Below, in pieces: positions 9,106 through 45,420 of a stretch of DNA of 45,420 nt. The notes beneath the pieces were generated by a model that worked only from the letters and a program-made list of their open reading frames with translations, did not search any database and was not told the DNA's origin. The translations under genes were made by a program, and so were the position numbers. How positions within the stretch are numbered: position 1 is the stretch's first letter; each line of letters begins with the position of its first letter. This DNA is from an uncultured Anaerolineales bacterium (GTDB lineage: Bacteria > Chloroflexota > Anaerolineae > UBA1429): NCBI GenBank assembly GCA_964649365.1, contig CAZYPJ010000002.1, forward strand, positions 11,263 through 56,682, read 5' to 3'.

Positions 9106-9134
9106 AGTTTAGCACAGAAAAGCCAGGCCGTCAG
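9106..9134 (-). promoter_or_regulatory. Possible promoter of the SDR gene
   Basis: On the minus strand: CTGACG (complement of 9129-9134), 17-nt spacer, TGc-TAAACT (complement of 9106-9114). This is about 45 nt upstream of the GTG start. Hexamer matches are only partial. Confidence 0.3.
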
Positions 9135-9375
9135 CCGCAGCAGATCGTTCGTGGCCATAATCATTTGGCGTAGCGCCTAGAATGTATATACTCGTTACTT
9201 GACGGCTGTACATGATGACCCGGTTGAAACTCGGCGTATATGAATAAATTGTAACATCCCCCAATGACCCCTTTCATCTCGCCTTCATCTCGTTTCCTTA
9301 TGATAGAACAGATGAAAAAGGGCTTCTGTGTGCGATTATGGCATCGCAGCGATCACAGAACGAGCGGGGGGTCAT

Positions 9376-15517: not shown

Positions 15518-15528
15518 GCGAGGCCCAC

Positions 15529-23049: not shown

Positions 23050-23066
23050 GATCGAGGTGATGAGCG

Positions 23067-23846: not shown

Positions 23847-23870
23847 AGCCAAGAGATAAGGAACGCGATC

Positions 23871-26755: not shown

Positions 26756-26774
26756 TGCTCTGCGGAGGGTTTTT

Positions 26775-30630: not shown

Positions 30631-30652
30631 TATCAATATACGAGGAAGCCAC

Positions 30653-31375
30653 TTGACTAACGGATTCAATCAGCCGGATGTAAACAAAGAACTCGAGCAA
30701 CAGAGGCGTTTGGGCGAGGCCGACGCCTATCTCTATTGGTTGTTTCAGAATCTGGAGCCGTACATCGGCCAACGCGTGCTCGATGTGGGCTGCGCCATCG
30801 GGAATATCACCCAGTTTTTTATCAACCGCGAGCGCGTGGTGGGGATTGATGTGGCCCCCGAGATGATCGCCGAGGTACGCCAACGTTTTGCGGATCGCGC
30901 CAATTTCGACGCCTGCGTGTACGACATCTCCCAACCTGATGTGCTGGCGTTGGCCGACGAACGACTGGACACCATTGTATGTGTTCACGTGTTGGAGCAC
31001 GTGGCCGACGACCGCGCCTCGCTGATTCATATGCGGGCCTTGTTGCCCAAAGGGGGACGGTTGATCTTGCTCGTGCCGACGGTGAAATGGGTATGGGGCG
31101 CGCTCGACGAGGCTACCGGTCACCAGCGGCGTTACAATTGGCCTGAACTGCCCCCGCTCCTTGCTGACACAGGGTTCGAGATCGAGGATCATTGGTACGT
31201 CAATTTCCTGGCTATCTTTGGTTGGTGGTTTACCGGGCGCGTGTTGCGCCGCGAGATCATCCCCACTGGCCAATACAGTCTGTATAATCGGATTACGCCG
31301 ATCCTGGCGCGCCTGGAAAGGTGGCTGCGTCCGCCCATTGGCCTATCGGTAGCTTGTATCTGCAAGGCAGTGTAG
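30653..31375 (+). CDS. Class I SAM-dependent methyltransferase
   Basis: VLDVGCAIGNIT (motif I), VVGIDVAPEMI, CVHVLEHV, LPKGGRLILLVP. The start is uncertain. TTG 30653 has GAGGAA 5 nt upstream. ATG 30593 (track) would overlap the previous gene by 38 nt. Confidence 0.8.
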   Translation: MTNGFNQPDVNKELEQQRRLGEADAYLYWLFQNLEPYIGQRVLDVGCAIGNITQFFINRERVVGIDVAPEMIAEVRQRFADRANFDACVYDISQPDVLALADERLDTIVCVHVLEHVADDRASLIHMRALLPKGGRLILLVPTVKWVWGALDEATGHQRRYNWPELPPLLADTGFEIEDHWYVNFLAIFGWWFTGRVLRREIIPTGQYSLYNRITPILARLERWLRPPIGLSVACICKAV

Positions 31376-31377
31376 CG

Positions 31378-32724
31378 ATGCGTATCTTGCTGATCGTCCC
31401 ACCGGGCTTGCCGGGTGTGACGCCCAACCACGAAGGCTCTTCGGGTTTAGGCGCCTTAGAGTCTGGCGCTGGGGCGTTTCGCTATCCGCCGCACACCATG
31501 GCGACGGCGGCATCGGCCCTGCGCGCGGCGGGGCATTCGGTCGAGGCGCTGGATGCGCCAGCCACGCAACTCGATGTCGCCGTTTGCGTAGCGCGTGTTT
31601 GGGCGGCTGGCGCTGATTTGATTGGCGTGTTCGTCTCGTGGGCCACCCGCGAGGGAGATCGCGCTTTGCTCGCGGCGCTGCGCGATAGCAGGCTAACCGT
31701 GCCTGTAATCGTTCTAGGGATTAGTGTGGCCTGGATGCACGATGATCTGGCCGCTGCTGACTATCTGCTAGAGGGGGAGCCAGAACTGGCCATAGCCGCA
31801 TTAGCTGATGCGCTAGATAGGGATCGCGTTAGCTTACCGCGAATCGTTACGCCAGCATCACTTGGCTTGCAGGGGTACGACTCTCAGGGTCTCATCGCCG
31901 ATCTGGATGCGCTGCCCGTCCCCGCGTGGGATTTGTGGCCTGTGTCACGCTATCCGTTCCTCAGCGTGCTCAGTAGTCGGGGTTGCGAGGCGCGCTGCAG
32001 CTGGTGTCCTTATGTCGTGGCGCAAGGGCGGCGTTTTCGCTCGCAGTCGCCCGAACGGGTGGTGGGTGAACTGCGCGAGATCGTGCAACGTTATCACCCC
32101 AAGCGTATCGTTTTTCGCGATCCGGCCTTTGCCCACGACTCTCAGCGCGTGGAGGCGATTTGTCATTTGATTTTGCGCGATCCCGTGTTGCAGCCCGGCG
32201 ATAATTTGCTATGGGAGTGCGAATCGCACCCCGAGCATTTCAGCGCGCCGCTCTTGCGCTGGATGGGGCTGGCGGGCTGCGTGGGCATCAAGATCGGGCT
32301 GGAAACGGCAGACGCCGCCGTTTTAGAACGCGAACAACGGCTGTTGCGCGCCGATCGTGATGACTATTTGGCGCATATCGCCATGCTCGCGCGCGAGTGC
32401 GCCCACCGAGGGATCGCCTGCCGGTTATATGTCATTGCGGGCTTGCCCGGCCAGGCTCTGGAGGCTACGTGCGAGACAGCTGCTTTTGCGCAGCGCATCC
32501 GCCCGGCGGCGTTTTCTATCCGTCCGCTCAAGTATTACCCGGGCTGTCAGCTTTCGATGGCGTCGGAATCATCAGCGGAAGAGACGCGTGCCCAAATGGA
32601 GATATTGCTAGAGGCGCAACAGGCCATCGCCCGGGCTGGTGCGCCTTTGGGATCACGTTGGCGGCGACGATTGGATCGGGCGTGGAGCCGCATTGTGTTG
32701 GCGTTCTCGGAGAGGAGGGTTTGA
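31378..32724 (+). CDS. B12-binding-domain radical SAM enzyme
   Basis: MRILLIVPPGLPG... (Rossmann-like B12-binding-type N-domain), SSRGCEARCSWCPY (CxxxCxxC), RIVFRDPAFAHD. ATG 31378 lies 2 nt after the upstream TAG. The track start 31321 is over-extended. Confidence 0.85.
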   Translation: MRILLIVPPGLPGVTPNHEGSSGLGALESGAGAFRYPPHTMATAASALRAAGHSVEALDAPATQLDVAVCVARVWAAGADLIGVFVSWATREGDRALLAALRDSRLTVPVIVLGISVAWMHDDLAAADYLLEGEPELAIAALADALDRDRVSLPRIVTPASLGLQGYDSQGLIADLDALPVPAWDLWPVSRYPFLSVLSSRGCEARCSWCPYVVAQGRRFRSQSPERVVGELREIVQRYHPKRIVFRDPAFAHDSQRVEAICHLILRDPVLQPGDNLLWECESHPEHFSAPLLRWMGLAGCVGIKIGLETADAAVLEREQRLLRADRDDYLAHIAMLARECAHRGIACRLYVIAGLPGQALEATCETAAFAQRIRPAAFSIRPLKYYPGCQLSMASESSAEETRAQMEILLEAQQAIARAGAPLGSRWRRRLDRAWSRIVLAFSERRV

Positions 32725-33701
32725 TGCGCGCCCTGGTAACTGGCGGCACAGGATTTGTCGGTTCGGCGGTGGTGCGCGCTTTGCTGGCCAACGGCGTACA
32801 GGTGGTGTGTTTGATTCGTTCCGGCAGTAACCAAAGGAACCTAGAGGGACTGGATGTAACCCTGGTTGAGGGCGACTTGAGCGACAGCGACTCACTTCGG
32901 CAGGCGCTGCGCGGCTGCCGGCAACTCTATCATGTGGCCGCCTTCTACAGCACGCGTCCCGAGGATGCCAAAGCGATGTTTACAATCAACGTTGAGGGGA
33001 CGCGCAATATCTTGCAAGCGGCGCTAGAATTGGGTTTGGAGCGCATCGTACACACCAGCACCATCGGCGTCATCGGGCGGCCATCCGATGGCCGTCTTCC
33101 CACAGAGAGCGACTTGTTTGACGACTGGGCTAACGCCAGTCCTTACGTCCGTAGCAAACTAGAGGCCGAGCGTATTGCGCTAGAATTGGCTGCGCATGGC
33201 GCGCCTATCGTGGTGGTGAACCCTTGTGCGCCCGTCGGCGCCCGCGACATCAAACCCTCCAGCAGCGGCGCGCGGATCATCGCTTACCTGATGGGACGCA
33301 CTCCGTCGTACCTACCGGGGGGGATCAATTTCGTGAGCGTGGAAGATGTGGCCGCCGGGCATCTACTAGCGGCGCGCCATGGGCGCGCTGGTGAGCGCTA
33401 TATCTTGGGCCATGCCGAGGGCAACCTGACGCTGGATGATTTCTGCGTGTTACTAGAGCGTGTCTCGGGCTTGCCCCAACCTCGCCAGGCGAATGCGAGT
33501 ACTCCACTTGCTGTCTTGCGGGCAGCGCTGCGGCGGCTGCGGGGCGACCCGCGCTCTCAGCTTGCTGCGCCGGGTTATCGCCCGCAGGCGCTGACCGCCG
33601 CCCCTAGCCGCGCCATCCACGAATTAGGCTTGCCACAGACGCCGCTGGAGGTTGCCTTTCGCCAAGCAATCGTTTGGTTTCGCGCCAACGGCTATGCCTA
33701 A
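32724..33701 (+). CDS. NAD-dependent epimerase/dehydratase family protein (HpnA / dihydroflavonol-reductase-like extended SDR)
   Basis: MRALVTGGTGFVGSAVVRALLANG (GxxGxxG), HTSTIG, YVRSK (YxxxK). The ATG overlaps the upstream TGA (TGATG) and GGAGAGGAGGG lies upstream. The 434-aa track ORF from 32397 is a 5' over-extension through the previous gene. Confidence 0.9.
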   Translation: MRALVTGGTGFVGSAVVRALLANGVQVVCLIRSGSNQRNLEGLDVTLVEGDLSDSDSLRQALRGCRQLYHVAAFYSTRPEDAKAMFTINVEGTRNILQAALELGLERIVHTSTIGVIGRPSDGRLPTESDLFDDWANASPYVRSKLEAERIALELAAHGAPIVVVNPCAPVGARDIKPSSSGARIIAYLMGRTPSYLPGGINFVSVEDVAAGHLLAARHGRAGERYILGHAEGNLTLDDFCVLLERVSGLPQPRQANASTPLAVLRAALRRLRGDPRSQLAAPGYRPQALTAAPSRAIHELGLPQTPLEVAFRQAIVWFRANGYA

Positions 33702-33779
33702 TCGGGGGCGCCGTCTTCCAGCCGGCAAGATTGCCGCCTGAAAGATGGCGTTCTCATTATACAGTATAAGGAGTAACCG

Positions 33780-34481
33780 TTGTCCCTAGTTTTCAGCCTC
33801 AAACGATCCCTTGCTCGTTCCTTTATGGAGCTTTCTGCTAAGCCATTGATCGGGCGCGCTTGCCTACGCTTGGCGGGTGCTCTGCGCGGACCATACAAGG
33901 ACAAACGCCTTCTGGCGCATTTGACGCGCCATCCCTATATCTCACCCAAGGCGCAAATCATGTGTCCGAAGCTAACTATCGGCCCGCAGTGCTTTATTGA
34001 TGAAGGGGTGACGATTTTCTCCCATCACGATGGCGGCGAGGTGCGCTTGGGCGAGGGGGTGCACATCTATCGCGGCACAATCATCGAAGTCGGACGCGGC
34101 GGCAGCGTCATCATCGGCGACCACACCCATATCCAGGCCAACTGCAACATCAAGGGTTTTTTGGCGAGCACGCGTATTGGTTGCAACGTGCAGATCGCGC
34201 CGCATTGTGGCTTTAGCCCTTATGAACACCGTTTCGATGATCTGGACGTCAACATTCGCGAGCAGGACATCGTTACGGCGGGTGACATTGTATTGGAGGA
34301 TAACGTCTGGCTGGGCCTCAGCGTGCAGGTGCTCGACGGCGTCACTATCGGCGCGGGCACAGTGGTAGGGGCGGGCGCAGTAGTCACCAAGAGTCTGCCA
34401 TCCAACGCCGTGGCCGTGGGCGTGCCGGCGCGGGTCATCCGGCGACGCGGCGAGGCCAATGGGTCGCCGCGCGCTATATGA
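33780..34481 (+). CDS. Left-handed beta-helix (hexapeptide repeat) acyl/acetyltransferase
   Basis: ...IGDHTHIQANCNIKG...IGCNVQIAPHCGFSPYEHRF...GDIVLEDNVWLGLSVQVLDGVTIGAGTVVGAGAVVTKSLPSNAVAVGVPARVIRRR. TTG 33780 is preceded by AAGGAG with a 6-nt spacer. Confidence 0.85.
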   Translation: MSLVFSLKRSLARSFMELSAKPLIGRACLRLAGALRGPYKDKRLLAHLTRHPYISPKAQIMCPKLTIGPQCFIDEGVTIFSHHDGGEVRLGEGVHIYRGTIIEVGRGGSVIIGDHTHIQANCNIKGFLASTRIGCNVQIAPHCGFSPYEHRFDDLDVNIREQDIVTAGDIVLEDNVWLGLSVQVLDGVTIGAGTVVGAGAVVTKSLPSNAVAVGVPARVIRRRGEANGSPRAI

Positions 34482-34564
34482 AGATATTGTCATAAGACCA
34501 CACTGCGCGGTTCAGCAGAGCTTCATCTTGACCCTTTAGAATACAAGATGGTTGAAAGGGGCGC

Positions 34565-35569
34565 ATGGGCGAACATAGGCGCATCTCGGTAGTAGTGCCG
34601 GTGTACAATGGGGCTTCCACATTGGCCAAATGCTTGGAAGCCCTTTTTGCCTCTGATTACGAGAATTTCGAGGTCATTGTCGTCAACGATGGTTCGACCG
34701 ATGCAACGCCCCAGATTGCTGCGCGTTACCCTTGTCGCCTATTGAACCAGCCTAATATGGGGGCTGCCCGAGCCAAGAACGCCGGCGCGCGCGAGGCCAC
34801 GGGCGAGTTGCTTTTTTTCACGGATGATGATGTTTACGCGCCGCCCCAGGCGCTTGGTTATGTAGCTGAGGCGCTCGCCGATCCGCAAGTGGATGGCGTG
34901 GTGGGGCTGTTAGGGCCGGATTGCCCGCACCCCAACTTTGCCAGCCAATTCAAGAACTTGTGGATGCACTATACCTACCGTCGCCAGCCGCGCCGGGTAG
35001 GATTGTTCTTTACCAGTGCGGCCGGTATCCGCCGCGAGTTGTTTCTGCACGAAGGCGGCTTTGATAGCCACTATGCTGGGGCCAGTATTACCGAAGACAT
35101 CGAATTCGGCCAGCGGTTGTTGAGCAAGGGCTATACCGTTGTCATGGATCAACGCCTGATGGTGACGCACGACAAGCGCTATTCCGGGCGTGAAGTGTTG
35201 CGTACCGATGTGCTTCGCGCGCGTGGGCTGATCCAGACCTGGCTGCGCAATCGCCTGGCGCAAGAAAAGCGCGCTCATTATGCCTCGGTTCCCTGGTTTT
35301 TTGGGGCGGGAGTGGCGGCGTTGGGATTGGGAACGCTTCTGGCGCTGCTGGCGTTGGCATTCTGGAGCGCGGCGCTATTGTGGGCCGCCCTGGCCATGGT
35401 TGCGGCGGCGCTGGCGTTCAACGCGCCTTTTCTCGCCGCGCTGTATCGCTGGCGTGGGCCGCGTTTTTTGGCGCAGAGCGTGACGTTCCTATTGGCCGAT
35501 TTGTTCGCCTCGGGCCTGGGCATCGCGCTGGGGATTTGCGACTTTGCGCTCCGCGGGCGCCGCTACTGA
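34565..35569 (+). CDS. GT2 glycosyltransferase with C-terminal transmembrane region
   Basis: ISVVVPVYNGASTLAKCLEALFAS...FEVIVVNDGSTDATPQIA...LLFFTDDDVYAP (DxD). The C-terminus has 3 hydrophobic segments (WFFGAGVAALGLGTLLALLALAF...). Confidence 0.85.
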   Translation: MGEHRRISVVVPVYNGASTLAKCLEALFASDYENFEVIVVNDGSTDATPQIAARYPCRLLNQPNMGAARAKNAGAREATGELLFFTDDDVYAPPQALGYVAEALADPQVDGVVGLLGPDCPHPNFASQFKNLWMHYTYRRQPRRVGLFFTSAAGIRRELFLHEGGFDSHYAGASITEDIEFGQRLLSKGYTVVMDQRLMVTHDKRYSGREVLRTDVLRARGLIQTWLRNRLAQEKRAHYASVPWFFGAGVAALGLGTLLALLALAFWSAALLWAALAMVAAALAFNAPFLAALYRWRGPRFLAQSVTFLLADLFASGLGIALGICDFALRGRRY

Positions 35570-35581
35570 ACGCATTACGAT

Positions 35582-35610
35582 TTCACGCTTTGTCAAGGAT
35601 TCGCTATAAT
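35582..35610 (+). promoter_or_regulatory. Candidate internal promoter heading the distal cassette
   Basis: TTCACG (35582-35587), 17-nt spacer, TATAAT (35605-35610). It lies in an 80-nt AT-richer gap between the GT2 stop (35569) and the radical SAM start (35650). GGAGGA RBS is at 35640-35645. Confidence 0.4.
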
Positions 35611-35649
35611 GTTTTTGATACAATATCGCTAAATATTTCGGAGGACGGC

Positions 35650-36813
35650 ATGGGTTCTCTTCACTATATGAAATACGCCAAGCGCATCCTTTACAAGCGC
35701 GGCGCCTCTCCTCTCTATTTTGTGTATTTCGTTACCGAAAACTGCAATGCTCGCTGCAAACATTGCCTGTTGGGCCAGCGCGAAGGCCGTGTGACCGGCG
35801 AGCTGACCATTGACGAGATCGCCAAGGTCTCGGCCAGCATGGATGATATGCTCTTTTTTACCCCTACCGGCGGCGAGCCTTTCTTACGCGCCGACCTGCC
35901 CGAGATCGTCAAGATCTTTCACACCAACAACCATGCACTGAATGTGGGTATCCCCACTAATGGCAGCATGACTGCGCGCGTAATGCGCTCGGTGACCAAG
36001 ATGCTGGAAGAGAACGATAATCTCGACTTGCACATTGACGTCTCGATTGACGGCTTGCCCGAATTGCACGACGAAATTCGCGGCGTACCCGGCTTGTTCA
36101 ATCGCGCCATCGAGACCTACCAATCGCTGCGCGAGCTGGAAAAGCACTATCCCAAGTTTAGCACCTGCATTCAAGTGACAGTCTCGGCCTATAATCAGCA
36201 CCAATTGCTCGAACTGTATGACTATTTGAAGCGCGGCGTAGGCGTCAATACCGTGTTCAGCCTACTCACGCGCGGCGAGCCGCGCGACCCCGCCGCCAAG
36301 GGGTTCGACATCAGCAAATACGAGGAATTTCATCGCGTGCTGGAAGAGGACAACAAGAAGCTGATGCTCAGCGGCTACTACAAGATGCCCTTTTCTGATG
36401 TGCTCAATGCCAAGCGCATCGTGCGGCCACGCATCATCGCCAAGACGGTGCGCGAGAATCGTTTCCAAATCCCCTGTTATGGCGGCACATTGGGCGCGGC
36501 GATGTTTAGCCATGGCCAGGTGTTGCCTTGCGAGCTGCGCTACAACGATGTGATCGGCAACGTGCGCGACGTGGACTATGACTTTATGAAGCTCTGGCGC
36601 AGTCCCAAGGCCGAGGAGTATCGGCGCGATATTCGCTGCAACAAGTGTTTTTGTACGTATGAGTGTTTCCTCACTGTCAATATCCTGTTCAACCCACTAG
36701 TTCTGCCTCGAGTGGGGTGGGAATACCTTCAACTCAAAGGGGCCAAACTGCGCCATCGGCTGGCGGGCGGCAAAATCGTTGAGGCGACGCCATTGGATGG
36801 CCCGGCCAGCTAA
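35650..36813 (+). CDS. Radical SAM / SPASM-domain protein
   Basis: MGSLHYMKYAKRILYKRGASPLYFVYFVTENCNARCKHC (CxxxCxxC). The C-terminal region is ...IPCYGGTLGAAMFSHGQVLPCELRYNDVIGNV...IRCNKCFCTYEC (SPASM-like Cys cluster). The track ORF from 35380 is a 5' over-extension. Confidence 0.87.
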   Translation: MGSLHYMKYAKRILYKRGASPLYFVYFVTENCNARCKHCLLGQREGRVTGELTIDEIAKVSASMDDMLFFTPTGGEPFLRADLPEIVKIFHTNNHALNVGIPTNGSMTARVMRSVTKMLEENDNLDLHIDVSIDGLPELHDEIRGVPGLFNRAIETYQSLRELEKHYPKFSTCIQVTVSAYNQHQLLELYDYLKRGVGVNTVFSLLTRGEPRDPAAKGFDISKYEEFHRVLEEDNKKLMLSGYYKMPFSDVLNAKRIVRPRIIAKTVRENRFQIPCYGGTLGAAMFSHGQVLPCELRYNDVIGNVRDVDYDFMKLWRSPKAEEYRRDIRCNKCFCTYECFLTVNILFNPLVLPRVGWEYLQLKGAKLRHRLAGGKIVEATPLDGPAS

Positions 36814-36854
36814 CGATGCCGAACGCGTATTAGCGCAAGGAAAAGGGGTAGGCT

Positions 36855-37595
36855 GTGTACAAGGGGCACACGATCTCGGTGGTCATACCTTGTTATAACG
36901 AAGAAAAGGCCATCGGCGCGACGCTGGCCGATATGCCCAGTATCGTTGATGAAGTGATCGTGGTGGATAACAATTGTGTGGATCGCACGGCCGAAGTGGC
37001 GCGCAGCCTGGGGGCCACAGTGGTATGCGAGACGCGCCAGGGATACGGCGCGGCCTACAAAAAGGGCTTTCGCAGCGCCACTAGCGACATAATCGTGACA
37101 ATGGATGGCGATGGCACCTATCCGCGCAGCTTTATTACCGCGTTGGTAGATGTGCTGCTCGTCGAAGAACTCGATTTCATCACCTGTGACCGCACGGGCT
37201 ACAAGAGCAAAGGATCAGGCACACCCACGCGCGTATTTGGCAATTGGGTGTTGAGTGTAGTGCAGACGGTACTCTTTGGGCAGCGCGTATCCGATTCGCA
37301 ATCGGGGATGTGGGGGTTCAAGCGTTCGATCTTGCCGCTGATCGAATTGACCAGTGATGGGATGCCTCTCTCAGAAGAGATCAAAATCGAGGCGTTCGCC
37401 AATCCCAAGATCAAGGCGCGCGAACTGCCGATCTACTATCGCGCGCGCCTGGGCGAGAGCAAGCTCAATGTATGGAAAGATGGTTTTAGGAATCTGTTGT
37501 TCCTATTTCATAAACGTTGGCAGATGTTTGGCTTTGTGAGGCGGCGACGCGGTTTTCAGCCGGTTATCTCGGCCACAGCGATGGATGACAAGTAG
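36855..37595 (+). CDS. GT2 glycosyltransferase (DPM1/GtrB-like lipid-phosphate sugar synthase-like)
   Basis: ISVVIPCYNEEKAIGATLADMP...VIVVDNNCVDRTAEVA...GYGAAYKKGF...IVTMDGDGTYP. GTG start follows AAGGAAAAGGGG. Confidence 0.86.
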   Translation: MYKGHTISVVIPCYNEEKAIGATLADMPSIVDEVIVVDNNCVDRTAEVARSLGATVVCETRQGYGAAYKKGFRSATSDIIVTMDGDGTYPRSFITALVDVLLVEELDFITCDRTGYKSKGSGTPTRVFGNWVLSVVQTVLFGQRVSDSQSGMWGFKRSILPLIELTSDGMPLSEEIKIEAFANPKIKARELPIYYRARLGESKLNVWKDGFRNLLFLFHKRWQMFGFVRRRRGFQPVISATAMDDK

Positions 37596-37604
37596 GATGC
37601 AGGT

Positions 37605-39605
37605 ATGACGGCTCAACCAGCAGCGATTCCCCAGGCTCGAGCGTGGAATTTACGGCTTGGCTCTTGGACGACCAAGCTATTCGTATTGCTGCTGTTCGCC
37701 ATCCTCACTGTTGGCATGACCTATCCACTTATCCTGAACTTGCGCACCGCTGTGCCCGGCCCGCCATGGGATAATTTCGTTTGGCTGTACGACCTCTGGT
37801 GGTTTCGGCACAGCATCGTAGATTTGCAGCAGTGGCCTACCATCAACCCGACCATCTTTTACCCCTTCGGCTACGATTTGCGCTTGTCCGAGACGACGCT
37901 GGCCACCAAGCTCCTGGCCGCCCCCTTTTTGTTCTGGGGCGATGAAATCTTGGCCTACAACGCCGTGTTGTTGCTCAGCTTTGTGCTGACGGCCTATGCT
38001 ACCTATTTGCTGATTGCCTACCTGACCGATAACAGCTACGCCGCCATCGTTGGTGCGGCGGTGTTTGCCTTTTGCCCATTCCGTATGCACGCCATGGCTG
38101 CGGGCTGGTTGCCCTTGATGGCCACGCAATGGATCCCGCTCACTTTCTTGTATCTAGAGCGTACCCTGCGCGACGGCAAGGCGCGCTATGCCCTGGTGAC
38201 GGGCCTGTTCATGGCGCTCACGATTCTTTCGTCGTGGTACTATCTCTATATCGTCGGCCCAGCAGTTTTGCTCTACCTGCTCATGCGCATGAGCAGACTC
38301 AAAGGATCTATTGATCGCGCCCAGCTCACCCGCAACCTGATGTTTGCCGGCCTGGTAATACTGGTCATGGTGTTGCCGGTAGCGCTGCCCGTCGTCATGC
38401 AACAATCGGGTTCGATGGGCTGGTCGGTGGCGGATGTAGAAAAATGGGCTGCCAGCGCCGAGGATTTCTTCATCCCTAATGTCTATCACCCCTTTTGGGG
38501 CGAATATTTCCTCTCGCTGCGCGCCGAGACCCTACGCTACCCTTGGTATGCGCCTGGGTTCGTCTATCTCGGCGTGGTGGCCATGTTACTAGCGGCAGGC
38601 GCGTTAGGGCGCAAGCGCGGCGCTAGCGACATCACGAGGCCATTCGTCTGGTTGGCTGTTCTCTTTTTGTTGATCGGCTTGGGACTGGTGTTGCACTGGG
38701 GAAACCGGGTAGTGACGATACCGGTGCCGGAAAAGGTAGAAACCTGGTACGTGCGCATCATGTCCACATTGATGAGCAAGCTGGCCTGGCACAAGGCTTC
38801 TTTGTATGATTTCGATTTTCAGCGAGGAACAGTCCCGATCCCTTTACCGGCGTTGTTTTTATACCTCTTTGTGCCTCTGGGCAATGCTATGCGCACCTTT
38901 TACCGTTTTGGCGTCATCACCATCTTTGCTGTGTCGGTGCTGGCGGGCATAGGCGCGGCCCATATCTTGGGAGGCAGCAGGGCGCCCGATATTGGGCCAA
39001 AGGGCAAGTACGACGTGATGCCTGCCCCTGAAGTCAGGCGCAAGAGTCGTCCCAGTATCGCTACTGCTACAGCCATCCTGCTGGGGCTGGTTCTGTTCGA
39101 TTTTTGTAGCGTGCCGTTGCCTTATGGCATGTCAGACATCAAGCCGCAGCCGCTGGATCGCTGGTTAGCCGCCCATCCCGACGATGTGGTGCTAATGCAA
39201 TTCCCTACTATTCGCGCCCTGAGTGGCGACAGCCTCTACCGCACCAAGTTTCATGGCAAGAGGGTGGCCTATGGCCACGGCACATTCTATCCGCAGAAGT
39301 ATCTCAAAGCCATGCCTACATTGGCCACATTCCCCAGCGAGGAGAGCCTCAAACTGCTGAAATCATGGGGCGTCACGCACATCGCTGTCGGCTCGCAAGC
39401 CTATGACGCCGGCTGGGGCGACCAACAAGGTCAGACGTGGGAAACAGTGCGCGCCCAGATCGAAGCCAACCGAAACCTCAAATTAGTAGGCGTCACCTAT
39501 GACGAACCTTTCTGGCGCGACGAGCACGTCTCGGGGATCATCTATGGCAGCCCTCCCGTCGTACCCATCCTGGTTGACAAAGTCTATGTTTACGAGTTGC
39601 GATGA
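37605..39605 (+). CDS. Polytopic membrane protein, YfhO/GT-C-like putative glycosyltransferase (paralog of 15529)
   Basis: LTVGMTYPLILNLRTAVPGPPWDNFVWLYDLWWFRHSIVDLQQWPTINPTIFYPFGYDLRLSETT and AYGHGTFYPQKYLKAMPTLATFPSEESLKLLKSWGVTHIAVG match the same positions in the 15529 protein. Confidence 0.75.
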   Translation: MTAQPAAIPQARAWNLRLGSWTTKLFVLLLFAILTVGMTYPLILNLRTAVPGPPWDNFVWLYDLWWFRHSIVDLQQWPTINPTIFYPFGYDLRLSETTLATKLLAAPFLFWGDEILAYNAVLLLSFVLTAYATYLLIAYLTDNSYAAIVGAAVFAFCPFRMHAMAAGWLPLMATQWIPLTFLYLERTLRDGKARYALVTGLFMALTILSSWYYLYIVGPAVLLYLLMRMSRLKGSIDRAQLTRNLMFAGLVILVMVLPVALPVVMQQSGSMGWSVADVEKWAASAEDFFIPNVYHPFWGEYFLSLRAETLRYPWYAPGFVYLGVVAMLLAAGALGRKRGASDITRPFVWLAVLFLLIGLGLVLHWGNRVVTIPVPEKVETWYVRIMSTLMSKLAWHKASLYDFDFQRGTVPIPLPALFLYLFVPLGNAMRTFYRFGVITIFAVSVLAGIGAAHILGGSRAPDIGPKGKYDVMPAPEVRRKSRPSIATATAILLGLVLFDFCSVPLPYGMSDIKPQPLDRWLAAHPDDVVLMQFPTIRALSGDSLYRTKFHGKRVAYGHGTFYPQKYLKAMPTLATFPSEESLKLLKSWGVTHIAVGSQAYDAGWGDQQGQTWETVRAQIEANRNLKLVGVTYDEPFWRDEHVSGIIYGSPPVVPILVDKVYVYELR

Positions 39606-42598
39606 AACGACATTATGTTTTGTATTTGTGGTGTTTGCCGTTGATTGTTGCGGCGATTGTTGTAGGGCAATTCGGCTCTAGCCCGGTAGTTGCTACGGGG
39701 GCGGTGCCCGGGCCAAGCGCTGGCGTTCCCCGATTGCTGACCACCGTATCTACTACCCTAGAGCTTCGCCGCGGCTTGAATGGTTACAATGGCGTCGCTG
39801 ATACGTATCTCTTGGCCAATGAGGGCGCCGTCAGCCCGCACGGCGGTGAAGATACGCTCCACATCAAAGAGAGCGCCTATGCCACCAAGCGATCGCTCAT
39901 CCGTTTTGATCTGGCTGCCGCCGGGATTCCATCCAACGCTACCATTACCGAAGCCTGGCTCGAGTTATTTGTGAGCTACCGCTATCCCGCCAATCCGGCC
40001 TCGGTCACTGCCTATTATTTGCTTAAACCCTGGGATGAAGCCTCTGCTACCTGGAACGTAGCTTCAACTGGACAAGGTTGGGCGTCGCCAGGTGCGGGCA
40101 GCGCCGGATCGGATTATGAAGCGACCGCCGCCGCTTCCGCCGCGTTCAGCACTTCATATGCTTACAACCGCATCAACGTGAAAAGCGCCGTCGAACGTTG
40201 GCTGCAAAATCCTGATGCCAACTATGGTTTGTTGCTCATGGGCAGCACCATTGACTTACGCGTCTGGAGTTCCGAAGATGTACGCGAAGGCGAGCGCCCT
40301 CGTCTTGTTATCACCTACGACGCGCCTTCCGACTATACGCCCGAACCTACTCGCTCTGCTACACCTACCCGCACGCCGTCGGCTGACGCCAGCCCGACGC
40401 CCACGCCGGCCAATTACATTTATTCTACAGGCTTGACCGAGGCTTTTGGGACTTCATACCCGAACTGCATCGAAGCCGGACCATCGGCGGTGAACCCCGA
40501 TAATACTGAGGTGCTGTTGATCTGGCAGGGCCAGGCTACCACTGCGAAATTGAGCTTTCTCTATTCGGGCAATAACAATCGCCACCATTCGGTGCTGGTC
40601 AACGATCAGATCATCGGCGCGCTGCCGGGCGACAATTGGCAATCGGTGTGCACCGGGGGCAGCTCGGCTCAGCTATCGTTCGATCCCGCGTTGGTGGTGA
40701 GCGGCGAAAACAAGATCAGCATTCTGGCCGATGTGCCCGGCGAGACTAACAGTTGGAGTTTGCAGAATCCCCGCATTCAATTGGGCGGTTACGTTCAGGG
40801 AACCGACATCAGTGTGGTCGAGTTGACTTCTAGTTACGATGGCACCACACAACGGGCGATGATCCAGAAGCCTATCGGCTATTCGACCAGCGTGGCCACG
40901 CCGTTGGTGCTTGGTCTGCACGGTTGGGGCGGGCGCGACTATGATGCTATGACCTGGTTGGCAGAGGCTTGCAACAATCGTGGTTGGCTGTTGGCTTGTT
41001 CCGACACGCGCAACGACAACCAACACACCGCCTCTAAGGCTGTACAGCACGACGTGATGGATTTGCTGAACTATATGCTGGGCAGCGACGAATACAACGT
41101 GGACGCTTCGCGAGTCTATCTCATCGGCAGCTCGATGGGCGGTATGATGGCGGCGACTATCGCTGCCAAATATCCCGACCGTTTTGCGGCGCTGGCGGAA
41201 CTCAAAGGCCCTACCAGCCTGGATGCCTGGTATTACGAAATAGAAGCCTGGCGGCAAGCTGTGATTTACACCGAAATGGGAACTTCGCCAGCCAACGCTC
41301 CTTTTAGTTATCAGCGAGCTTCGGCGGCAGCCATGGCCAGGAACTTGCGCAATGTCCCAACCCTTATCATTCACGGACTGAACGATGTAACAGTCCCTTA
41401 TCATCACGCCGAAGATCTATACACAGCAATGGTCGCTAGTGACGCTACGGATGTGGCTCTGTATCCATTCACAGGAGGGCACAGCGACGATCACCCTAAT
41501 TGGAACAACGACCAGATTATGGGCTTTTTCGCCGAGCATACCTTGAACGCGAACCCGCTGACTGTGACGGTGCGCACCGATGAGCCCAAGTCATATTACT
41601 GGATGAATATATCGCACGGTGTCTCGGACCATTGGACGCAAGCCAGCGCCTACCTCAACCCCGATACGCAGACTGTCACTCTGGAGGTGTTCGACGAACG
41701 CGCTACGCCTGCCTCGGTGGATATTACCCTCGACTTGACCAGAATGGGTTTGCCAACCGGCGTAGCCTATACGGTCGAGGACGCCAACTTGACCACAGGC
41801 GAGTTCTTTCAATACTCGACGCAGGCTAGTTCGACGTTGGTGTTGACTGTGCCCCGCGACCGCCATCGCTTGACGATCTATCCCTTCACAGCCGCCGCGC
41901 CTCAATCCATTACGCTGCGTCAGGGCGAGGGGGGCTATCAGGGGATGGTGGACACTTATATCGAGAGTTATGTTCGTGACGCCAACCACGACGCCGAGGG
42001 CCTGCGCGTGTCTTTTGGCGGCAACCGCACGCCTTTGCTGCGCTTTGACCTGGCGGGGCGCTTTGATGAACGCGCTGTGATCAAATCGGCGCAATTTGGC
42101 GTGTATAGCACCGCCAAGTGGAATTCGAGCGACAGCATCACTACCGGCATCTACAAGGTGCTGACCGACTGGACCTCGACTCAGGCTACCTGGGATGAGC
42201 GCTTCAGCGGCGCATCGTGGAACCAAGCGGGGGCGCTGGGATCGGGCGAAGATTATGATCCGACGCTGGTATCGTCGAACCAGATGGCCAATATCGGCGC
42301 CTGGTATCGCTACAATGTAACCGATTTGGTGCGCGAATGGGTAGCTAACCCGCAGAACAACCACGGGTTGCTGATCCGTGGCGAGACCGGCCTGGGCACG
42401 TTCACGCTCAATTCGAGCGAGGGCGCCTCGTACAAGCCTGAACTGATTATCTATTACACCGAAGCCACTAACACGCCCACGCCGACGATCACACCGACGC
42501 CCACGTACACAGCGACGCCCACCGTCACACGCACGCCGACGCAAAGGCCGACGCCGACGAATGCGGGCCGCGTCTATTTGCCCGCGATCGTGAAATAG
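39602..42598 (+). CDS. Secreted 998-aa protein: signal peptide, DNRLRE/CBM96-like module, Pro/Thr linker, beta-sandwich-like region, alpha/beta-hydrolase (esterase) domain, second DNRLRE module, Pro/Thr linker, short hydrophobic tail
   Basis: - Start and signal peptide: the ATG overlaps the stop of the upstream GT-C gene (ATGA at 39602-39605). Signal peptide is MKRHYVLYLWCLPLIVAAIVVGQFG.
- DNRLRE motifs, N-terminal module: DTYLL...SLIRFDL...LLKPWDEASATWN...NYGLLLMG...RPRLVITY.
- DNRLRE motifs, C-terminal module: DTYIES...LLRFDL...YKVLTDWTSTQATWD...NHGLLIRG...KPELIIYY.
- Esterase core: LVLGLHGWGG...YLIGSSMGGMMAA (GxSxG at ~41126-41143)...IIHGLNDVTVP...GGHSD.
- Pro/Thr linkers: approximately 40321-40413 and 42467-42561. 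Confidence 0.88.
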   Translation: MKRHYVLYLWCLPLIVAAIVVGQFGSSPVVATGAVPGPSAGVPRLLTTVSTTLELRRGLNGYNGVADTYLLANEGAVSPHGGEDTLHIKESAYATKRSLIRFDLAAAGIPSNATITEAWLELFVSYRYPANPASVTAYYLLKPWDEASATWNVASTGQGWASPGAGSAGSDYEATAAASAAFSTSYAYNRINVKSAVERWLQNPDANYGLLLMGSTIDLRVWSSEDVREGERPRLVITYDAPSDYTPEPTRSATPTRTPSADASPTPTPANYIYSTGLTEAFGTSYPNCIEAGPSAVNPDNTEVLLIWQGQATTAKLSFLYSGNNNRHHSVLVNDQIIGALPGDNWQSVCTGGSSAQLSFDPALVVSGENKISILADVPGETNSWSLQNPRIQLGGYVQGTDISVVELTSSYDGTTQRAMIQKPIGYSTSVATPLVLGLHGWGGRDYDAMTWLAEACNNRGWLLACSDTRNDNQHTASKAVQHDVMDLLNYMLGSDEYNVDASRVYLIGSSMGGMMAATIAAKYPDRFAALAELKGPTSLDAWYYEIEAWRQAVIYTEMGTSPANAPFSYQRASAAAMARNLRNVPTLIIHGLNDVTVPYHHAEDLYTAMVASDATDVALYPFTGGHSDDHPNWNNDQIMGFFAEHTLNANPLTVTVRTDEPKSYYWMNISHGVSDHWTQASAYLNPDTQTVTLEVFDERATPASVDITLDLTRMGLPTGVAYTVEDANLTTGEFFQYSTQASSTLVLTVPRDRHRLTIYPFTAAAPQSITLRQGEGGYQGMVDTYIESYVRDANHDAEGLRVSFGGNRTPLLRFDLAGRFDERAVIKSAQFGVYSTAKWNSSDSITTGIYKVLTDWTSTQATWDERFSGASWNQAGALGSGEDYDPTLVSSNQMANIGAWYRYNVTDLVREWVANPQNNHGLLIRGETGLGTFTLNSSEGASYKPELIIYYTEATNTPTPTITPTPTYTATPTVTRTPTQRPTPTNAGRVYLPAIVK

Positions 42599-42624
42599 GG
42601 TCATGCAGTAATCGAGAAAGACAG

Positions 42625-44064
42625 ATGCGAATCCTTTTGATTTATTCTGATATCAGCGGCGCCGAACACTACGGCGCCAAGAAATATTACTCCGGCGTGG
42701 GGTCCATCTCGGCGGTGTTGAAAGCAGCGGGCCATGAGACGCGCCTGCTTTATTTGCAGCGCCAACTCGACCGCGAAGCGTTCTTGGCCGAGGTCGAGGC
42801 GGTCTCGCCCGGAATGGTGGGCTTTTCGACCACGACCCATCAATATCCCTACATCGAGCGTTATGCGGGATATATAAAGGAGACGTGGCCTGATTTACCT
42901 TTGGTTTGCGGCGGCACGCATCCCACGCTCGTCCCGGAGCAAGTGGTTGCCAGCCCGAGTTTCGATATCGTCTGCGTGGGCGAGGGCGAATATCCACTGC
43001 GCGACCTAGCCGAACGATTGGCTGCCGGACAGGACTACGCCGACATCCCCAATCTGTGGCTGCGGCGCAATGGCGAGGTTATCCGCAACCCGTTACGCCC
43101 GCTGATCGCCAACCTCGACGAATTGCCTTACGCCGACCGCGAGTTGTTCGATTATGACGCAATACTGGCGGCCAACGATGGCTGGGTAGATCTCATTGCC
43201 GGGCGGGGTTGCCCTTACAACTGCTCGTATTGTTGTAACCCAGGACTCAAGAAACGCTATGGCGGCTTGGGCAAATACGTGCGTTTTCGCGGAGTGGAAC
43301 ACGTCGTCGGCGAAATCCGTGCGTTGCGCGAACGCTACAAGATCAAGATCATCAATTTTCAGGATGATACCTTTACTTTGGACCGCGACTGGGCATTGGC
43401 TTTTTGCCGAGCCTATGCCGCTGAGTTCGAGTATCCATATTGGATCAACACCCGCGTTGAGCGCATCTTGGGCGATGAAGAGCTGGTCAAGGCGTTGGCC
43501 GATTCCCATTGCGCCGGTATCCGCGTGGGGGTCGAAAATGGCGACGAGACGCTGCGCGCCAATGTGCTCAAACGGCGGATGTCCAACCAAGAGATCATTG
43601 ACGCTTTCCGTCTGGTGCGTCGCTATGGGCTGAAAGCCTATACCTGCAATATGATTGGCATTCCGGGCGAGACGCCCGCGAGCATTCAGGCCACTATTGA
43701 TCTGAACCGCGCTCTGTCGCCTGACGAGTTCCAATTCTCGGTGTTCTATCCTTACCCAATGACCGAGCTGTATGATACCTGCGTGGAGCAGGCGCTCATC
43801 AAGCCGGGCGCTGAGCTGTCCAGCTATTATAGTCAAGAGAGCGTGCTGCGCCTGCCCACGCTGACCGACAAGCAACTGGCCGAGGGGTACGCGCGTTTCG
43901 AGGCGCTCAAATCCGAATTGGCGCTCAAGCGCGCCAGCCCGCTCAAGCACCGACTGTACACCCTTTTGCTCAAGCTCTATCGCGACGATGCGCCTCGCTT
44001 GCAGCGCCATCTGGTTGCGCTGCGCAGGCTGCGTCGTCGTATCCTATCGAGATCGCGAGCCTAA
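42625..44064 (+). CDS. B12-binding-domain radical SAM enzyme
   Basis: MRILLIYSDISG...VGFSTTTHQY...LVCGGTHPTL...DIVCVGEGEYPL (B12-binding-type N-domain), GRGCPYNCSYCCN (CxxxCxxC), IINFQDDTFTLDR. Confidence 0.88.
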   Translation: MRILLIYSDISGAEHYGAKKYYSGVGSISAVLKAAGHETRLLYLQRQLDREAFLAEVEAVSPGMVGFSTTTHQYPYIERYAGYIKETWPDLPLVCGGTHPTLVPEQVVASPSFDIVCVGEGEYPLRDLAERLAAGQDYADIPNLWLRRNGEVIRNPLRPLIANLDELPYADRELFDYDAILAANDGWVDLIAGRGCPYNCSYCCNPGLKKRYGGLGKYVRFRGVEHVVGEIRALRERYKIKIINFQDDTFTLDRDWALAFCRAYAAEFEYPYWINTRVERILGDEELVKALADSHCAGIRVGVENGDETLRANVLKRRMSNQEIIDAFRLVRRYGLKAYTCNMIGIPGETPASIQATIDLNRALSPDEFQFSVFYPYPMTELYDTCVEQALIKPGAELSSYYSQESVLRLPTLTDKQLAEGYARFEALKSELALKRASPLKHRLYTLLLKLYRDDAPRLQRHLVALRRLRRRILSRSRA

Positions 44065-44066
44065 CC

Positions 44067-44756
44067 ATGAACCTTGTGGCTTATTATGACGCCTACTGGC
44101 GCCAAGCGGATGATTCCTTCGACCATGATCGGCTGGCGCTGCTGGCCAAGCACGTTCACCCCGGCGAGACAGTGCTGGAAGTGGATTGTGGTCCCGGAGT
44201 CTTGGCTGCCAAGATGCGCGACCAGGGGGCCATCGTCACCGCCACCGACCTTTCATCTGTGGCGGTGGAACGGGCGCGGGCCAAGGGCATCCCTTGTACT
44301 CAGGTGGTTATAGACAACGAACCATTGCCCTTTGCTGATGCCAGCTTTGAGGTGGTCGTCTCAAACTCGGCTATTGAGCATCGCTTTTTCCACGAAAAGG
44401 TGTTCGACGAGTGCGTGCGTGTGCTCAAACCTGGCGGGCGCTTTATTGTCTGCTTGCCCAATATTGCCCATATCATCTGTCGTTGGTGGCTGCTTACTGG
44501 GCGCTTTCCCTACATCATCAATTCGCCCACCGACGCTATGCACCTTCGCTTTTTCACTGTGCGTGAGGCGACGACGCTTTGTCGCCAGCGTGGACTCAGG
44601 ATCGTCTCCGCTGAAGGCAGCGCCAGCCTGTGGGCGCGCGAGTTCTATCCGCCCTTGTGGCGCAAGCGCCGCCTGCGCGGGCTGATTACGTGGTTAGCCA
44701 AGGTCTGGCCCGCCATGTTTGGGCGCGATTTTGTATTGGTGGGCGTCAAGCAGTAA
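44067..44756 (+). CDS. Class I SAM-dependent methyltransferase
   Basis: VLEVDCGPGVLAAKM (motif I), VTATDLS, VVSNSAIEH, LKPGGRFIVCLPN. The ATG lies 2 nt after the upstream TAA. Confidence 0.85.
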   Translation: MNLVAYYDAYWRQADDSFDHDRLALLAKHVHPGETVLEVDCGPGVLAAKMRDQGAIVTATDLSSVAVERARAKGIPCTQVVIDNEPLPFADASFEVVVSNSAIEHRFFHEKVFDECVRVLKPGGRFIVCLPNIAHIICRWWLLTGRFPYIINSPTDAMHLRFFTVREATTLCRQRGLRIVSAEGSASLWAREFYPPLWRKRRLRGLITWLAKVWPAMFGRDFVLVGVKQ

Positions 44757-44800
44757 ACTCTGTCGTTCGTCGTTGCTACATCGTATAACTGGGGGATGGG

Positions 44801-45409
44801 ATGAGTCTGAGAAGAGATGTGGGCTTGAGCCTGTTCTGGGTGGCTCTGGCTACCATCGGGTCGAAAGGGCTGGCGCTGTTGCGCAAGTTGATTTTGGCGC
44901 GCCTGCTCGTTCCGGCGGATTTCGGTCTGGTGGCCTACGCCTCGTTGGCCATCGGCGTATTCGAGTTGTTCAAGGAACTGGGCTTCAGCTCGGCCCTGAT
45001 TTTCCGGCGGGACGATGTAGAAGAGGCCGCCAACACGACCTTTGTAGCTGTGTTGGCGACGAGCGTGTCACTCTATATCTTGGCCTTTTTCACCTCGCCG
45101 TTGGTGGCTGACTTTTTCCGCAACCCAGCGCTCACCGATGTGCTGCGGGTGCTGTCGCTTACGATGGTGATCTCATCCGTTAGCCAGGTGCCCATCACGC
45201 TCATGGCCAAGGGGATGGGGTTCAAGAAAAAGGTCATCCCCGAGATGATCGCCGAAGTCATCGCCTCGTCTATCTCGGTAGTGTTAGCGCTGCTGGGCTG
45301 GGGCGTGTGGTCCATTGTCTATGGCCAGCTTATCCTTGCTACAATGGTATCTATCTACGTCTGGTTTTTATGCCCCAGGCCGCCCACCTGGAAATATTCG
45401 AGGCGCTAG
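44801..45409 (+). CDS. MOP/PST-family (Wzx-like) polysaccharide/oligosaccharide flippase, N-terminal ~200 aa only; ends at TAG 45407-45409 (probably premature)
   Basis: LFWVALATIGSKGLALLRKLILARLLVPADFGLVAYASLAIGVFELFKELGFSSALIFRRD...VLSLTMVISSVSQVPITLMAKGMGFKKKVIPEMIAEVIASSISVVLALLGWGVWSIVYGQL matches the N-terminal half of Wzx/PST flippases, which normally have >400 aa and 12-14 TM segments. Only ~6 TM segments are present before the stop. Confidence 0.7.
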   Translation: MSLRRDVGLSLFWVALATIGSKGLALLRKLILARLLVPADFGLVAYASLAIGVFELFKELGFSSALIFRRDDVEEAANTTFVAVLATSVSLYILAFFTSPLVADFFRNPALTDVLRVLSLTMVISSVSQVPITLMAKGMGFKKKVIPEMIAEVIASSISVVLALLGWGVWSIVYGQLILATMVSIYVWFLCPRPPTWKYSRR

Positions 45410-45420
45410 GCCAGGGAGTT

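Follow-up and report, generated by a model that had tools for sequence, protein, structure and literature searches.

Among the closest described relatives of the genes considered here are two kinds of system. Multi-component systems of the YfhO/CsbB type are known to glycosylate wall polymers (PMC5836110, PMC8035078); those used here for comparison are CsbB/GtcA/YfhO (Bacillus subtilis, and the lipoteichoic acid of Listeria), GtrA/GtrB/GtrC and ArnC/ArnT (PMC5836110, PMC8035078, PMC11127046). The Pgf operon of Streptococcus mutans, together with GtrB/PgtC2, is a precedent for protein glycosylation: PgtC2 and PgfM1 are YfhO-type glycosyltransferases of the GT-C superfamily acting on Ser/Thr-rich disordered regions, and adhesin substrates are encoded beside the enzymes (PMC12041528). 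The present analysis concerns a stretch of 45,420 nucleotides (nt) from an uncultured Anaerolineales bacterium (Chloroflexota; hereafter the window), and in particular its segment 35582-42598, which encodes a radical S-adenosylmethionine protein with a SPASM domain (rSAM/SPASM), a family 2 glycosyltransferase (GT2), a GT-C-like membrane protein and a predicted secreted hydrolase with DNRLRE modules and Pro/Thr-rich (PT) linkers. A first-pass annotation had taken these four genes for a separately acquired, self-contained cassette of deviant composition. All four gene identities and coordinates are borne out by the open reading frames (ORFs) and by Pfam, yet the origin proposed for them is rejected here, horizontal gene transfer (HGT) of such a cassette being very improbable. 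By a slight balance of the evidence, the segment would rather be a sub-operon with a promoter of its own, part of an ancient Chloroflexota cluster for an envelope glycan or glycoconjugate that has been passed down vertically, with a polysaccharide as the acceptor.

In common with the CsbB/GtrB/ArnC-type systems, a GT2 gene resembling those of polyprenyl-phosphate-sugar synthases adjoins a multi-pass GT-C gene within a polysaccharide cluster, and the GT-C carries a conserved acidic residue in its first outer loop. The locus departs from them in that the focal GT-C falls in a clade found only in Chloroflexota and has marginal PF10131/YfhO scores, that no GtrA/GtcA-type flippase gene is adjacent (a DUF2304 protein is encoded elsewhere in the cluster), that the rSAM/SPASM gene is wedged between two GT2 genes, and that a secreted hydrolase with family 96 carbohydrate-binding modules (CBM96) is translationally coupled to the GT-C. 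With streptococcal Pgf the locus shares the combination of a GT-A/GT2 enzyme with a GT-C, of the YfhO type in Pgf and YfhO-like here; Pgf encodes Ser/Thr-rich substrate proteins in its cluster, and here the neighbouring hydrolase has two Pro/Thr-rich linkers predicted to be exposed. The linkers are, however, Pro/Thr-rich rather than poly-Ser/Thr, the phylum and the envelope are not the same, the GT-C is often found with no hydrolase, and the setting is otherwise a large Wzx-type polysaccharide cluster. In the actinobacterial Ppm1/Pmt system (GT39), a polyprenyl-phosphate-mannose synthase and a GT-C enzyme O-mannosylate the PT-rich linkers of secreted enzymes. The focal GT-C is not a member of PMT/GT39 (no PF02366 or MIR match, and Foldseek matches to Pmt1/2/4 only at E 0.05-1), PMT_2-family proteins being encoded by other genes of the cluster.

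The hydrolase, in turn, recalls polymer esterases. DNRLRE is CBM96, whose founding member TM6-N4, from an alginate lyase, binds alginate (PMC9971899), and CBM96 is also found on a polyhydroxybutyrate (PHB)-depolymerase-type hydrolase, TtPHBase of Thermanaeromonas (PMC12278694). The likeness extends to the presumed use of DNRLRE/CBM96 modules as polymer-binding domains and to the combination of CBM96 with a PHB-depolymerase/CE1-like alpha/beta-hydrolase core; the protein studied here differs in that its core has a CBM96 module on either side and is accompanied by two further beta domains, by PT linkers and by a conserved C-terminal Leu-Pro (LP) tag, and in being encoded in a biosynthetic rather than a catabolic cluster. 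The literature searched describes neither the GT-C clade specific to Chloroflexota nor the GT2-rSAM/SPASM-GT2 triad, the coupling of a CBM96 hydrolase or its C-terminal tag; a search on DUF6311, PF19830 and PF10131 returned only a TMTC paper, and no paper bringing together Chloroflexi, YfhO and glycosyltransferase was found. The envelope of Anaerolineae and related Chloroflexota, bacteria abundant in sediments, digesters and the subsurface, is poorly understood. The triad, the clade-specific GT-C with its secreted CBM96 hydrolase, and the tag are testable units in this regard, and cluster and triad are good experimental targets even though the claim of a foreign cassette fails.

That claim was built on a trough in G+C content (GC), for which 60-nt lines had been counted by hand; all 13 counts are exact. 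In comparisons made within the 45 kb window, the trough is real but small, GC being 0.562 for 35582-42598 against 0.592 for the rest, and a block of GT2 genes at 22348-24620 is equally low (0.544-0.561). GC at third codon positions (GC3), which the annotation itself had named as a check, is flat, with a mean of 0.690 in the four genes against 0.701 elsewhere (standard deviation 0.031; Mann-Whitney p=0.46), and the compositional argument fails with it. The low GC of the four genes is confined to codon positions 1 and 2 (GC1 0.552 against 0.613 elsewhere, p=0.0015), and a similarly low GC1 is seen in the giant protein with seven CBM96 modules encoded near the start of the window. Moreover, the GC1/GC2 dip recurs in the orthologous genes of six relatives, whose GC3 equals that of their own neighbours over a range of host GC3 from about 0.60 (locus L004) to 0.85-0.86 (L007). 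Since GC3 is flat and the dip recurs in host-matched orthologues, the dip reflects amino-acid usage and not foreign origin; third positions are equilibrated with each host, which in turn implies long residence. The distance in synonymous codon usage, likewise named as a check, is mildly raised gene by gene (z 1.7-2.0), yet the block as a whole (0.088) is no outlier among other gene runs of 6-8 kb (0.049-0.092). A scan for tRNAs and a search for repeats over about 34500-43700 revealed no island boundaries, only 18-nt repeats encoding a PT linker, and no mobility genes were found at the segment edges. As a matter of method, a dip in total GC does not speak for foreign origin when third codon positions fail to share it.

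Gene order points the same way. The cluster spans at least 9328-45420, runs on past the end of the window and is found in Chloroflexota (Anaerolineae, Ardenticatenales and Caldilineae); it comprises Wzx-type polysaccharide genes, eight GT-C-like enzymes, four GT2s resembling lipid-sugar synthases, five radical SAM enzymes and CBM96 surface proteins, along with acetyltransferases, one deacetylase, methyltransferases and B12-binding radical SAM (B12-rSAM) enzymes. For comparison, 58 loci (numbered with the prefix L) were fetched, and all window proteins were mapped on them by tblastn (E<=1e-8), the labels being best matches. The gene order of the window, from the helix-turn-helix (HTH) gene at 9328 through the B12-rSAM gene at 42625, recurs on one contig (L027 and L005). 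In sequence identity the focal genes (53-90%) are not set apart from the flanking ones (52-83%), the values of the two groups alternating. The order GT2(34565)-rSAM-GT2-GT-C-hydrolase is shared by the window, L001, L004, L005, L006, L007 and L016, with the same epimerase and hexapeptide-transferase genes upstream and, where the sequence reaches, the same B12-rSAM, methyltransferase and Wzx genes downstream; the same genes flank the segment in relatives down to 45-50% identity. The annotation had proposed to look in other genomes for the four genes as an independent unit: their order is conserved in close relatives, but in none of the 58 loci do the four genes stand outside the larger cluster or without the preceding GT2 34565.

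Their combination varies from locus to locus. The GT-C and the hydrolase occur without the rSAM and the GT2 in L002/L003 and L011; GT2-rSAM-GT2-GT-C closes the cluster in L015, L017 and L020, where unrelated genes come next and the hydrolase is missing; the GT-C and a GT2 stand alone amid housekeeping genes in L009, L010, L012 and L013; and GT2-GT2-GT-C with tandem GT-C copies and no rSAM is found in L018, L019, L021, L024 and L049. The GT2-rSAM-GT2 triad, instead, is present in every rSAM-bearing locus, namely 11 loci with a GT-C orthologue and L056-L058, and in all of them GT2 34565, which the annotation had left outside its interval, is directly upstream of the rSAM gene. Because the triad begins at GT2 34565, the conserved core straddles the left boundary drawn for the cassette, which would split it. 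The rSAM family is far larger, with 1933 matches (the best 120 of 1933 are all at least 60% identical), and the triad is put at roughly two thousand protein clusters; in the sampled L056, L057 and L058 the rSAM again lies between two GT2s, L056 and L058 having neither the DUF6311-type GT-C nor the hydrolase. In L056 the triad adjoins kinase, nucleotidyltransferase, SIS isomerase and HAD phosphatase genes, which look like a heptose-type nucleotide-sugar pathway. At the other end, hydrolase homologues of only 29-34% identity still precede MTase-Wzx-GT1-Wzy_C (MTase, methyltransferase), with the order (B12-rSAM)-MTase-Wzx kept and the GT-C not always present. What speaks for HGT of a cassette thus amounts to a total GC three points lower, an AT-rich gap with a promoter at the 5' edge and a slightly raised codon distance; GC3 that tracks its hosts, divergence matching that of the flanking genes, a unit never seen alone and edges lacking a terminator, a tRNA, a repeat or a mobility gene leave it very little room.

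The sequence features described at the 5' edge of the segment are confirmed. As the annotation had it, an AT-rich gap of 80 nt (35570-35649; GC 0.39, the lowest among the intergenic gaps of the cluster) follows the upstream GT2, which ends at 35569, and contains the element TTCACG-17-TATAAT. This is the best-scoring site (10/12) in a scan of 30000-45420, in which promoter-like sites are found at chance level (8, with 7.6 expected from shuffles). Across five sequences (the window, L001, L005, L007 and L023), however, TATAAT(G) is invariant in 6/6 columns, compared with only 5 of the other 61 spacer columns (56 vary), and a TTTC(A/G)C -35 element stands at a fixed distance from it; L004 and L016 have TGnTATAAT instead, and in the more distant L057 and L058 the gaps are only about 20-30 nt long. 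This footprint in the close clade argues that there is probably an internal promoter before the rSAM gene, a part of the annotation that is plausible as it stands. In L056, a 136-nt AT-rich spacer (7865-8000) precedes the rSAM orthologue and carries, instead of the TATAAT element of the close clade, a long imperfect inverted repeat (TTTCAGATT…/…AATCTGAAA). A Rfam scan of the whole window gave no matches, which leaves the 80-nt gap without a riboswitch or a leader RNA.

At the 3' edge, the description as self-contained does not hold: gaps of 26, 2 and 44 nt lead from 42598 to the B12-rSAM, methyltransferase and Wzx genes (Table 1), no terminator-like hairpin was found after 42598, and transcription most likely runs on into these three genes. 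Within the segment, the ATGA shared by the GT-C stop and the hydrolase start was confirmed and recurs in six loci (the window, L001, L006, L007, L008 and L022); the gap between the two genes is 2-5 nt in L002, L005 and L011 and about 250-300 nt in L004 and L016. The annotation had considered this overlap its strongest argument that the GT-C acts on the DNRLRE/PT protein. The overlap is real and conserved, but between 9328 and 45409 overlaps are common (12 of 30 junctions), and at 25502-25505 the deacetylase and GT87 genes share the very same ATGA; because overlapping junctions are the norm in the operon, it is weak evidence for an enzyme-substrate pair. The coupling is better understood as co-expression of what would be two extracytoplasmic steps of one pathway than as a proven enzyme-substrate pair.

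Table 1. Features of the four-gene segment, its neighbours and the GT-C paralogue (window coordinates).
Feature	Position	Strand	Basis or remark
GT-C paralogue, 643 aa (amino acids)	15508-17439	+	36% identity over 661 aa to focal GT-C
GT2, 334 aa, two C-terminal transmembrane (TM) helices (aa 258-276, 306-324)	34565-35569	+	Glycos_transf_2 1.4e-33
Promoter-like element, sigma-70-type, TTCACG-17-TATAAT	35582-35610	+	-35 at 35582-35587, -10 at 35605-35610
Shine-Dalgarno-like GGAGGA	35641-35646	+	ends 3 nt before ATG at 35650, read directly
rSAM/SPASM	35650-36813	+	Pfam Radical_SAM + SPASM
GT2	36855-37595	+	Pfam GT2
GT-C	37605-39605	+	PF10131 PTPS_related, GT-C clan
ATGA start/stop overlap, GT-C/hydrolase	39602-39605	+	read from ORFs
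Predicted secreted hydrolase, 998 aa	39602-42598	+	two CBM96/DNRLRE around S9/BD-FAE alpha/beta hydrolase
N-terminal CBM96 (DNRLRE), aa 50-240	39749-40321	+	Pfam, NCBIfam, AlphaFold2
PT-rich disordered linker 1, aa 247-269	40340-40408	+	composition conserved across family
Alpha/beta-hydrolase catalytic domain, aa 433-645	40898-41536	+	GSSMG elbow, Ser511 (41132-41134), Asp595, His627
C-terminal CBM96 (DNRLRE), aa 782-954	41945-42463	+	Pfam, AlphaFold2
PT-rich linker 2, aa 955-989	42464-42568	+	imperfect 18-nt repeats (repeat family D1)
C-terminal tag RVYLPAIVK	42569-42595	+	consensus R-x-[YH]-L-P-x-[ILV]-x-K
B12-binding radical SAM	42625-44064	+	Pfam
SAM methyltransferase	44067-44756	+	Pfam
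Wzx-type flippase	44801-, cut by window end	+	Pfam

None of the four focal proteins has an NCBIfam equivalog. The rSAM/SPASM protein (387 aa; Radical_SAM 47 bits, SPASM 24.5 bits at a cutoff of 21.5) shows both the CX3CX2C motif (C32/C36/C39) and the C-terminal Cys-rich domain (Cys 276, 294, 330, 333, 335, 339) that define Radical SAM/SPASM proteins, no named NCBIfam subfamily reaching its cutoff; within the block it is the best conserved, at 84-90% identity to its orthologues. GT2 36855 (246 aa, Pfam GT2 2e-24, DGD motif at aa 84-86) has as its best NCBIfam matches AglJ (117 bits, cutoff 325) and a dolichyl-phosphate hexose transferase (115 bits, cutoff 375), scores below cutoff which liken it to polyprenyl-phosphate hexose synthases of the DPM1/AglJ type. 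The annotation's pairing of a GT2 resembling dolichyl- or undecaprenyl-phosphate-hexose synthases with a GT-C is sound in view of these matches and of the Foldseek results below.

The GT-C (666 aa) scores 27.9 bits against PF10131 (cutoff 26.4). Its AlphaFold2 model (pLDDT 88.3, pTM 0.89) is matched by Foldseek with probability 1.0 to STT3, AftD, AglB, DPY19, ArnT, PglB and AftA (E down to 5e-9, TM-score about 0.4-0.5, 9-14% identity), and on the strength of the model the protein can be placed in the GT-C superfamily. Across 33 orthologues the pair Asp56-Asn57 (PGPPWDN, in the first outer loop, just after the first TM helix) reaches a conservation of at least 90%, which suggests Asp56 as the catalytic residue. 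PF10131 is matched by 21 of the 33 orthologues and YfhO by 16 (best 3e-9), the window protein itself having no YfhO (PF09586) match at E<=0.001. It lacks a WWD motif (the WWDYG type of STT3/PglB/AglB), its sole WW being at aa 65-66 in loop 1. The clade, of the YfhO/PTPS_related/DUF6311 kind, is confined to Chloroflexota metagenome-assembled genomes (MAGs). The paralogue at 15508 has sugar-modifying neighbours and no adjacent gene for a secreted protein; its orthologues form the class of 35-38% identity in loci L025-L048.

The fourth gene encodes, in order, a signal peptide, a CBM96 module, a PT linker, a beta domain, an alpha/beta hydrolase, a beta sandwich, a second CBM96, a second PT linker and the C-terminal tag. 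Profile matches are to CBM96 (PF24517, 88.5 bits at a cutoff of 26, in two stretches), Peptidase_S9 (74 bits), BD-FAE and NCBIfam DNRLRE (NF033679, 149.5 bits at a cutoff of 34), by which the DNRLRE modules are assigned to the carbohydrate-binding family CBM96. Because DNRLRE is CBM96 (PMC9971899), the domain is more plausibly the part by which the hydrolase binds carbohydrate than a site for glycosylation. The remoter homologues P0124 and P0125 have a malectin domain in place of the N-terminal CBM96, as expected of an exchangeable carbohydrate-binding module. With G509, S511, G513, D595 and H627 invariant in 22 sequences, the protein is, as judged from its sequence, a secreted serine hydrolase with an intact catalytic triad. 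The AlphaFold2 model (pLDDT 85.7) is disordered at aa 22-47, 247-269 and 959-998. The closest Protein Data Bank structures to the catalytic domain are the esterase LC-Est1 (3wyd) and esterases of the PHB-depolymerase-family, feruloyl and acetylxylan kinds, followed by S9 catalytic domains; in a Foldseek search with the full hydrolase generic alpha/beta-hydrolase matches dominate, and the two extra beta domains were not identified. The tag directly follows the PT linker, with L993 and P994 near-invariant, and is seen in the orthologues of L002, L004, L005, L016 and L022. Across all loci, of 959 ORFs with 200 aa or more, only hydrolase orthologues carry it and the other 952 lack it, and the giant protein with seven CBM96 modules has no such C-terminal LP tag. 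The tag is not an LPXTG motif, nor does a TM segment come after it; it might serve as a signal for sorting, anchoring or docking.

How these proteins would work together can be sketched as follows, the steps that go beyond gene identity, fold, conserved residues and synteny being inferred. The GT2 and the GT-C most likely carry out lipid-linked extracytoplasmic glycosylation: on the inner side of the membrane the DPM1/AglJ-like GT2 36855 would load a hexose on polyprenyl phosphate and, after flipping, the YfhO/PTPS-related GT-C would transfer it on the outer side by means of Asp56 of loop 1. The acceptor would most likely be the polysaccharide made by the surrounding Wzx/Wzy-type genes, a polymer presumably also handled by the seven other GT-C-like proteins, the three other DPM1-like GT2s, the acetyltransferases, the deacetylase, the methyltransferases and the B12-rSAM enzymes. 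The rSAM/SPASM probably modifies the sugar, or the lipid-linked sugar, of its flanking GT2s (34565 and the DPM1-like one), a role proposed because it always lies between the two. The hydrolase, finally, may bind the polymer through its two CBM96 modules and remove or remodel an ester substituent, a step for which the acetyltransferases and the deacetylase of the cluster provide the context.

A glycan is regarded as the likelier acceptor because the GT-C/GT2 pair, the paralogue and tandem GT-C copies all occur without the hydrolase, and because the hydrolase keeps its Wzx/Wzy neighbours at long evolutionary range. Several points count against the favoured reading or qualify it. Where both genes are present, the GT-C/hydrolase junction is tight (ATGA or at most 5 nt) in 9 of 11 loci. 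Enzymes of the YfhO type are known to glycosylate Ser/Thr-rich disordered regions (PMC12041528), and the Foldseek matches of the GT-C include protein-acting (STT3, AglB, PglB, DPY19) and glycan- or lipid-acting (AftD, AftA, ArnT) enzymes without separating them. In Ardenticatenales (L053), several additional proteins with signal peptides and PT linkers are encoded between the GT-Cs and the hydrolase, an arrangement that fits protein glycosylation too. Peptidase_S9 is the best Pfam match of the catalytic domain, a profile result that does not tell an esterase from a peptidase; the four genes do share a small, consistent excess in codon distance; and all relatives are MAGs or metagenome contigs, whose synteny labels depend on the tblastn threshold given above. 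A certain, tentative weight is given to O-glycosylation of the Pgf kind, that is, to the functional half of the annotation's idea freed from HGT: the polyprenyl-phosphate sugar of the GT2 would be transferred by a YfhO-like GT-C to Ser/Thr in the PT linkers of secreted proteins, the co-translated CBM96 hydrolase being the dedicated substrate and the giant seven-CBM96 protein perhaps another. The YfhO matches among the GT-C orthologues agree with it, as do the enzymes and the adhesin-encoding layout of S. mutans Pgf and the fact that both PT linkers are conserved, predicted to be disordered and exposed. Yet it must accommodate a GT-C accompanied by a GT2 but by no hydrolase in at least seven loci (L009, L010, L012, L013, L015, L017 and L020), a hydrolase homologue (L054, 29% identity) with no adjacent GT-C, and a paralogue at 15508 that lacks a protein partner; linkers of the PT type are a general feature of these bacteria, the overlapping junction is commonplace, and four PMT_2 proteins of the same cluster would be equally good candidates. 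A broad protein specificity would be compatible with all of this. Transfer by the GT-C to the PT linkers of the DNRLRE/PT protein is the main rival to transfer to the cluster glycan, and the less likely of the two.

The role of the rSAM/SPASM invites a further reading, in which it matures the secreted hydrolase, as an anSME-like enzyme or a cross-linker like those of ribosomally synthesized and post-translationally modified peptides, and does not modify a sugar. Characterised SPASM enzymes do act mostly on peptides or proteins, the NCBIfam matches of this one include sactipeptide, ranthipeptide and mycofactocin maturases, and the hydrolase family has an invariant Cys289 and further conserved Cys. 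The two genes are, however, readily separated (rSAM without hydrolase in L015, L017, L020, L056 and L058; hydrolase without rSAM in L002 and L011), the constant partners of the rSAM are the two GT2s, its sequence matches in the Protein Data Bank include the sugar-acting BlsE, and the hydrolase is exported whereas rSAM enzymes are cytoplasmic; such a maturase is thus given only a slim chance. Rather less far-fetched, though still improbable, is that the locus is a Chloroflexota counterpart of streptococcal Pgf with an added radical-SAM step. If so, the triad would build an unusual, radical-SAM-modified polyprenyl-linked sugar, the GT-C would attach it to the Pro/Thr linkers of the hydrolase and of other proteins such as the seven-CBM96 one, and the C-terminal R-x-Y-L-P-x-I-x-K tag would be a new recognition or anchoring signal.

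Apart from the polysaccharide-directed sub-operon favoured above, some features of the rest of the window, which carries one long run of plus-strand genes, may be recorded. Between 12463 and 30630 the density of GT-C-like genes in one co-directional array is unusual. The GT-C-like set of the cluster consists of four PMT_2 proteins, one GT87, a 791-aa protein with a weak YfhO match, the 643-aa paralogue and the focal GT-C, alongside four DPM1-like GT2s, three B12-rSAM genes and two SPASM rSAM genes. The gene of the DUF2304 protein (26745-27182, 145 aa, three TM helices) lies between those for GT87 and PMT_2, a position kept in many loci at 50-77% identity; the protein is a candidate for a small membrane partner, perhaps a flippase, of the lipid-linked sugar steps.

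The giant protein (1023-8186, 2387 aa) has long PT linkers between its seven CBM96 modules and ends in a domain that is not of the PT type. Between it and the cluster lies the convergent gene of a short-chain dehydrogenase (8267-9115, minus strand), so that it does not belong to the same operon. The first B12-rSAM gene (9953-11455) is interrupted by an in-frame TAG at 10679-10681 (…YRHF*FIDALFT…). Twelve relatives read through with Tyr at this site (NFYFIDDLFT), and the window has Ala in place of the following conserved Asp; a conserved recoding site splitting the gene into 9953-10681 and 10739-11455 was accordingly rejected, the TAG being a mark either of a pseudogene or of an error in sequencing. 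The HTH protein (9328-9825, 165 aa) is similar to the N-terminal part of an IS630 transposase (NCBIfam 65 bits, under cutoff). That it is debris of an insertion sequence was considered and rejected: it is kept at the cluster head at 57-70% identity in more than 12 loci, and looks like a domesticated regulator.

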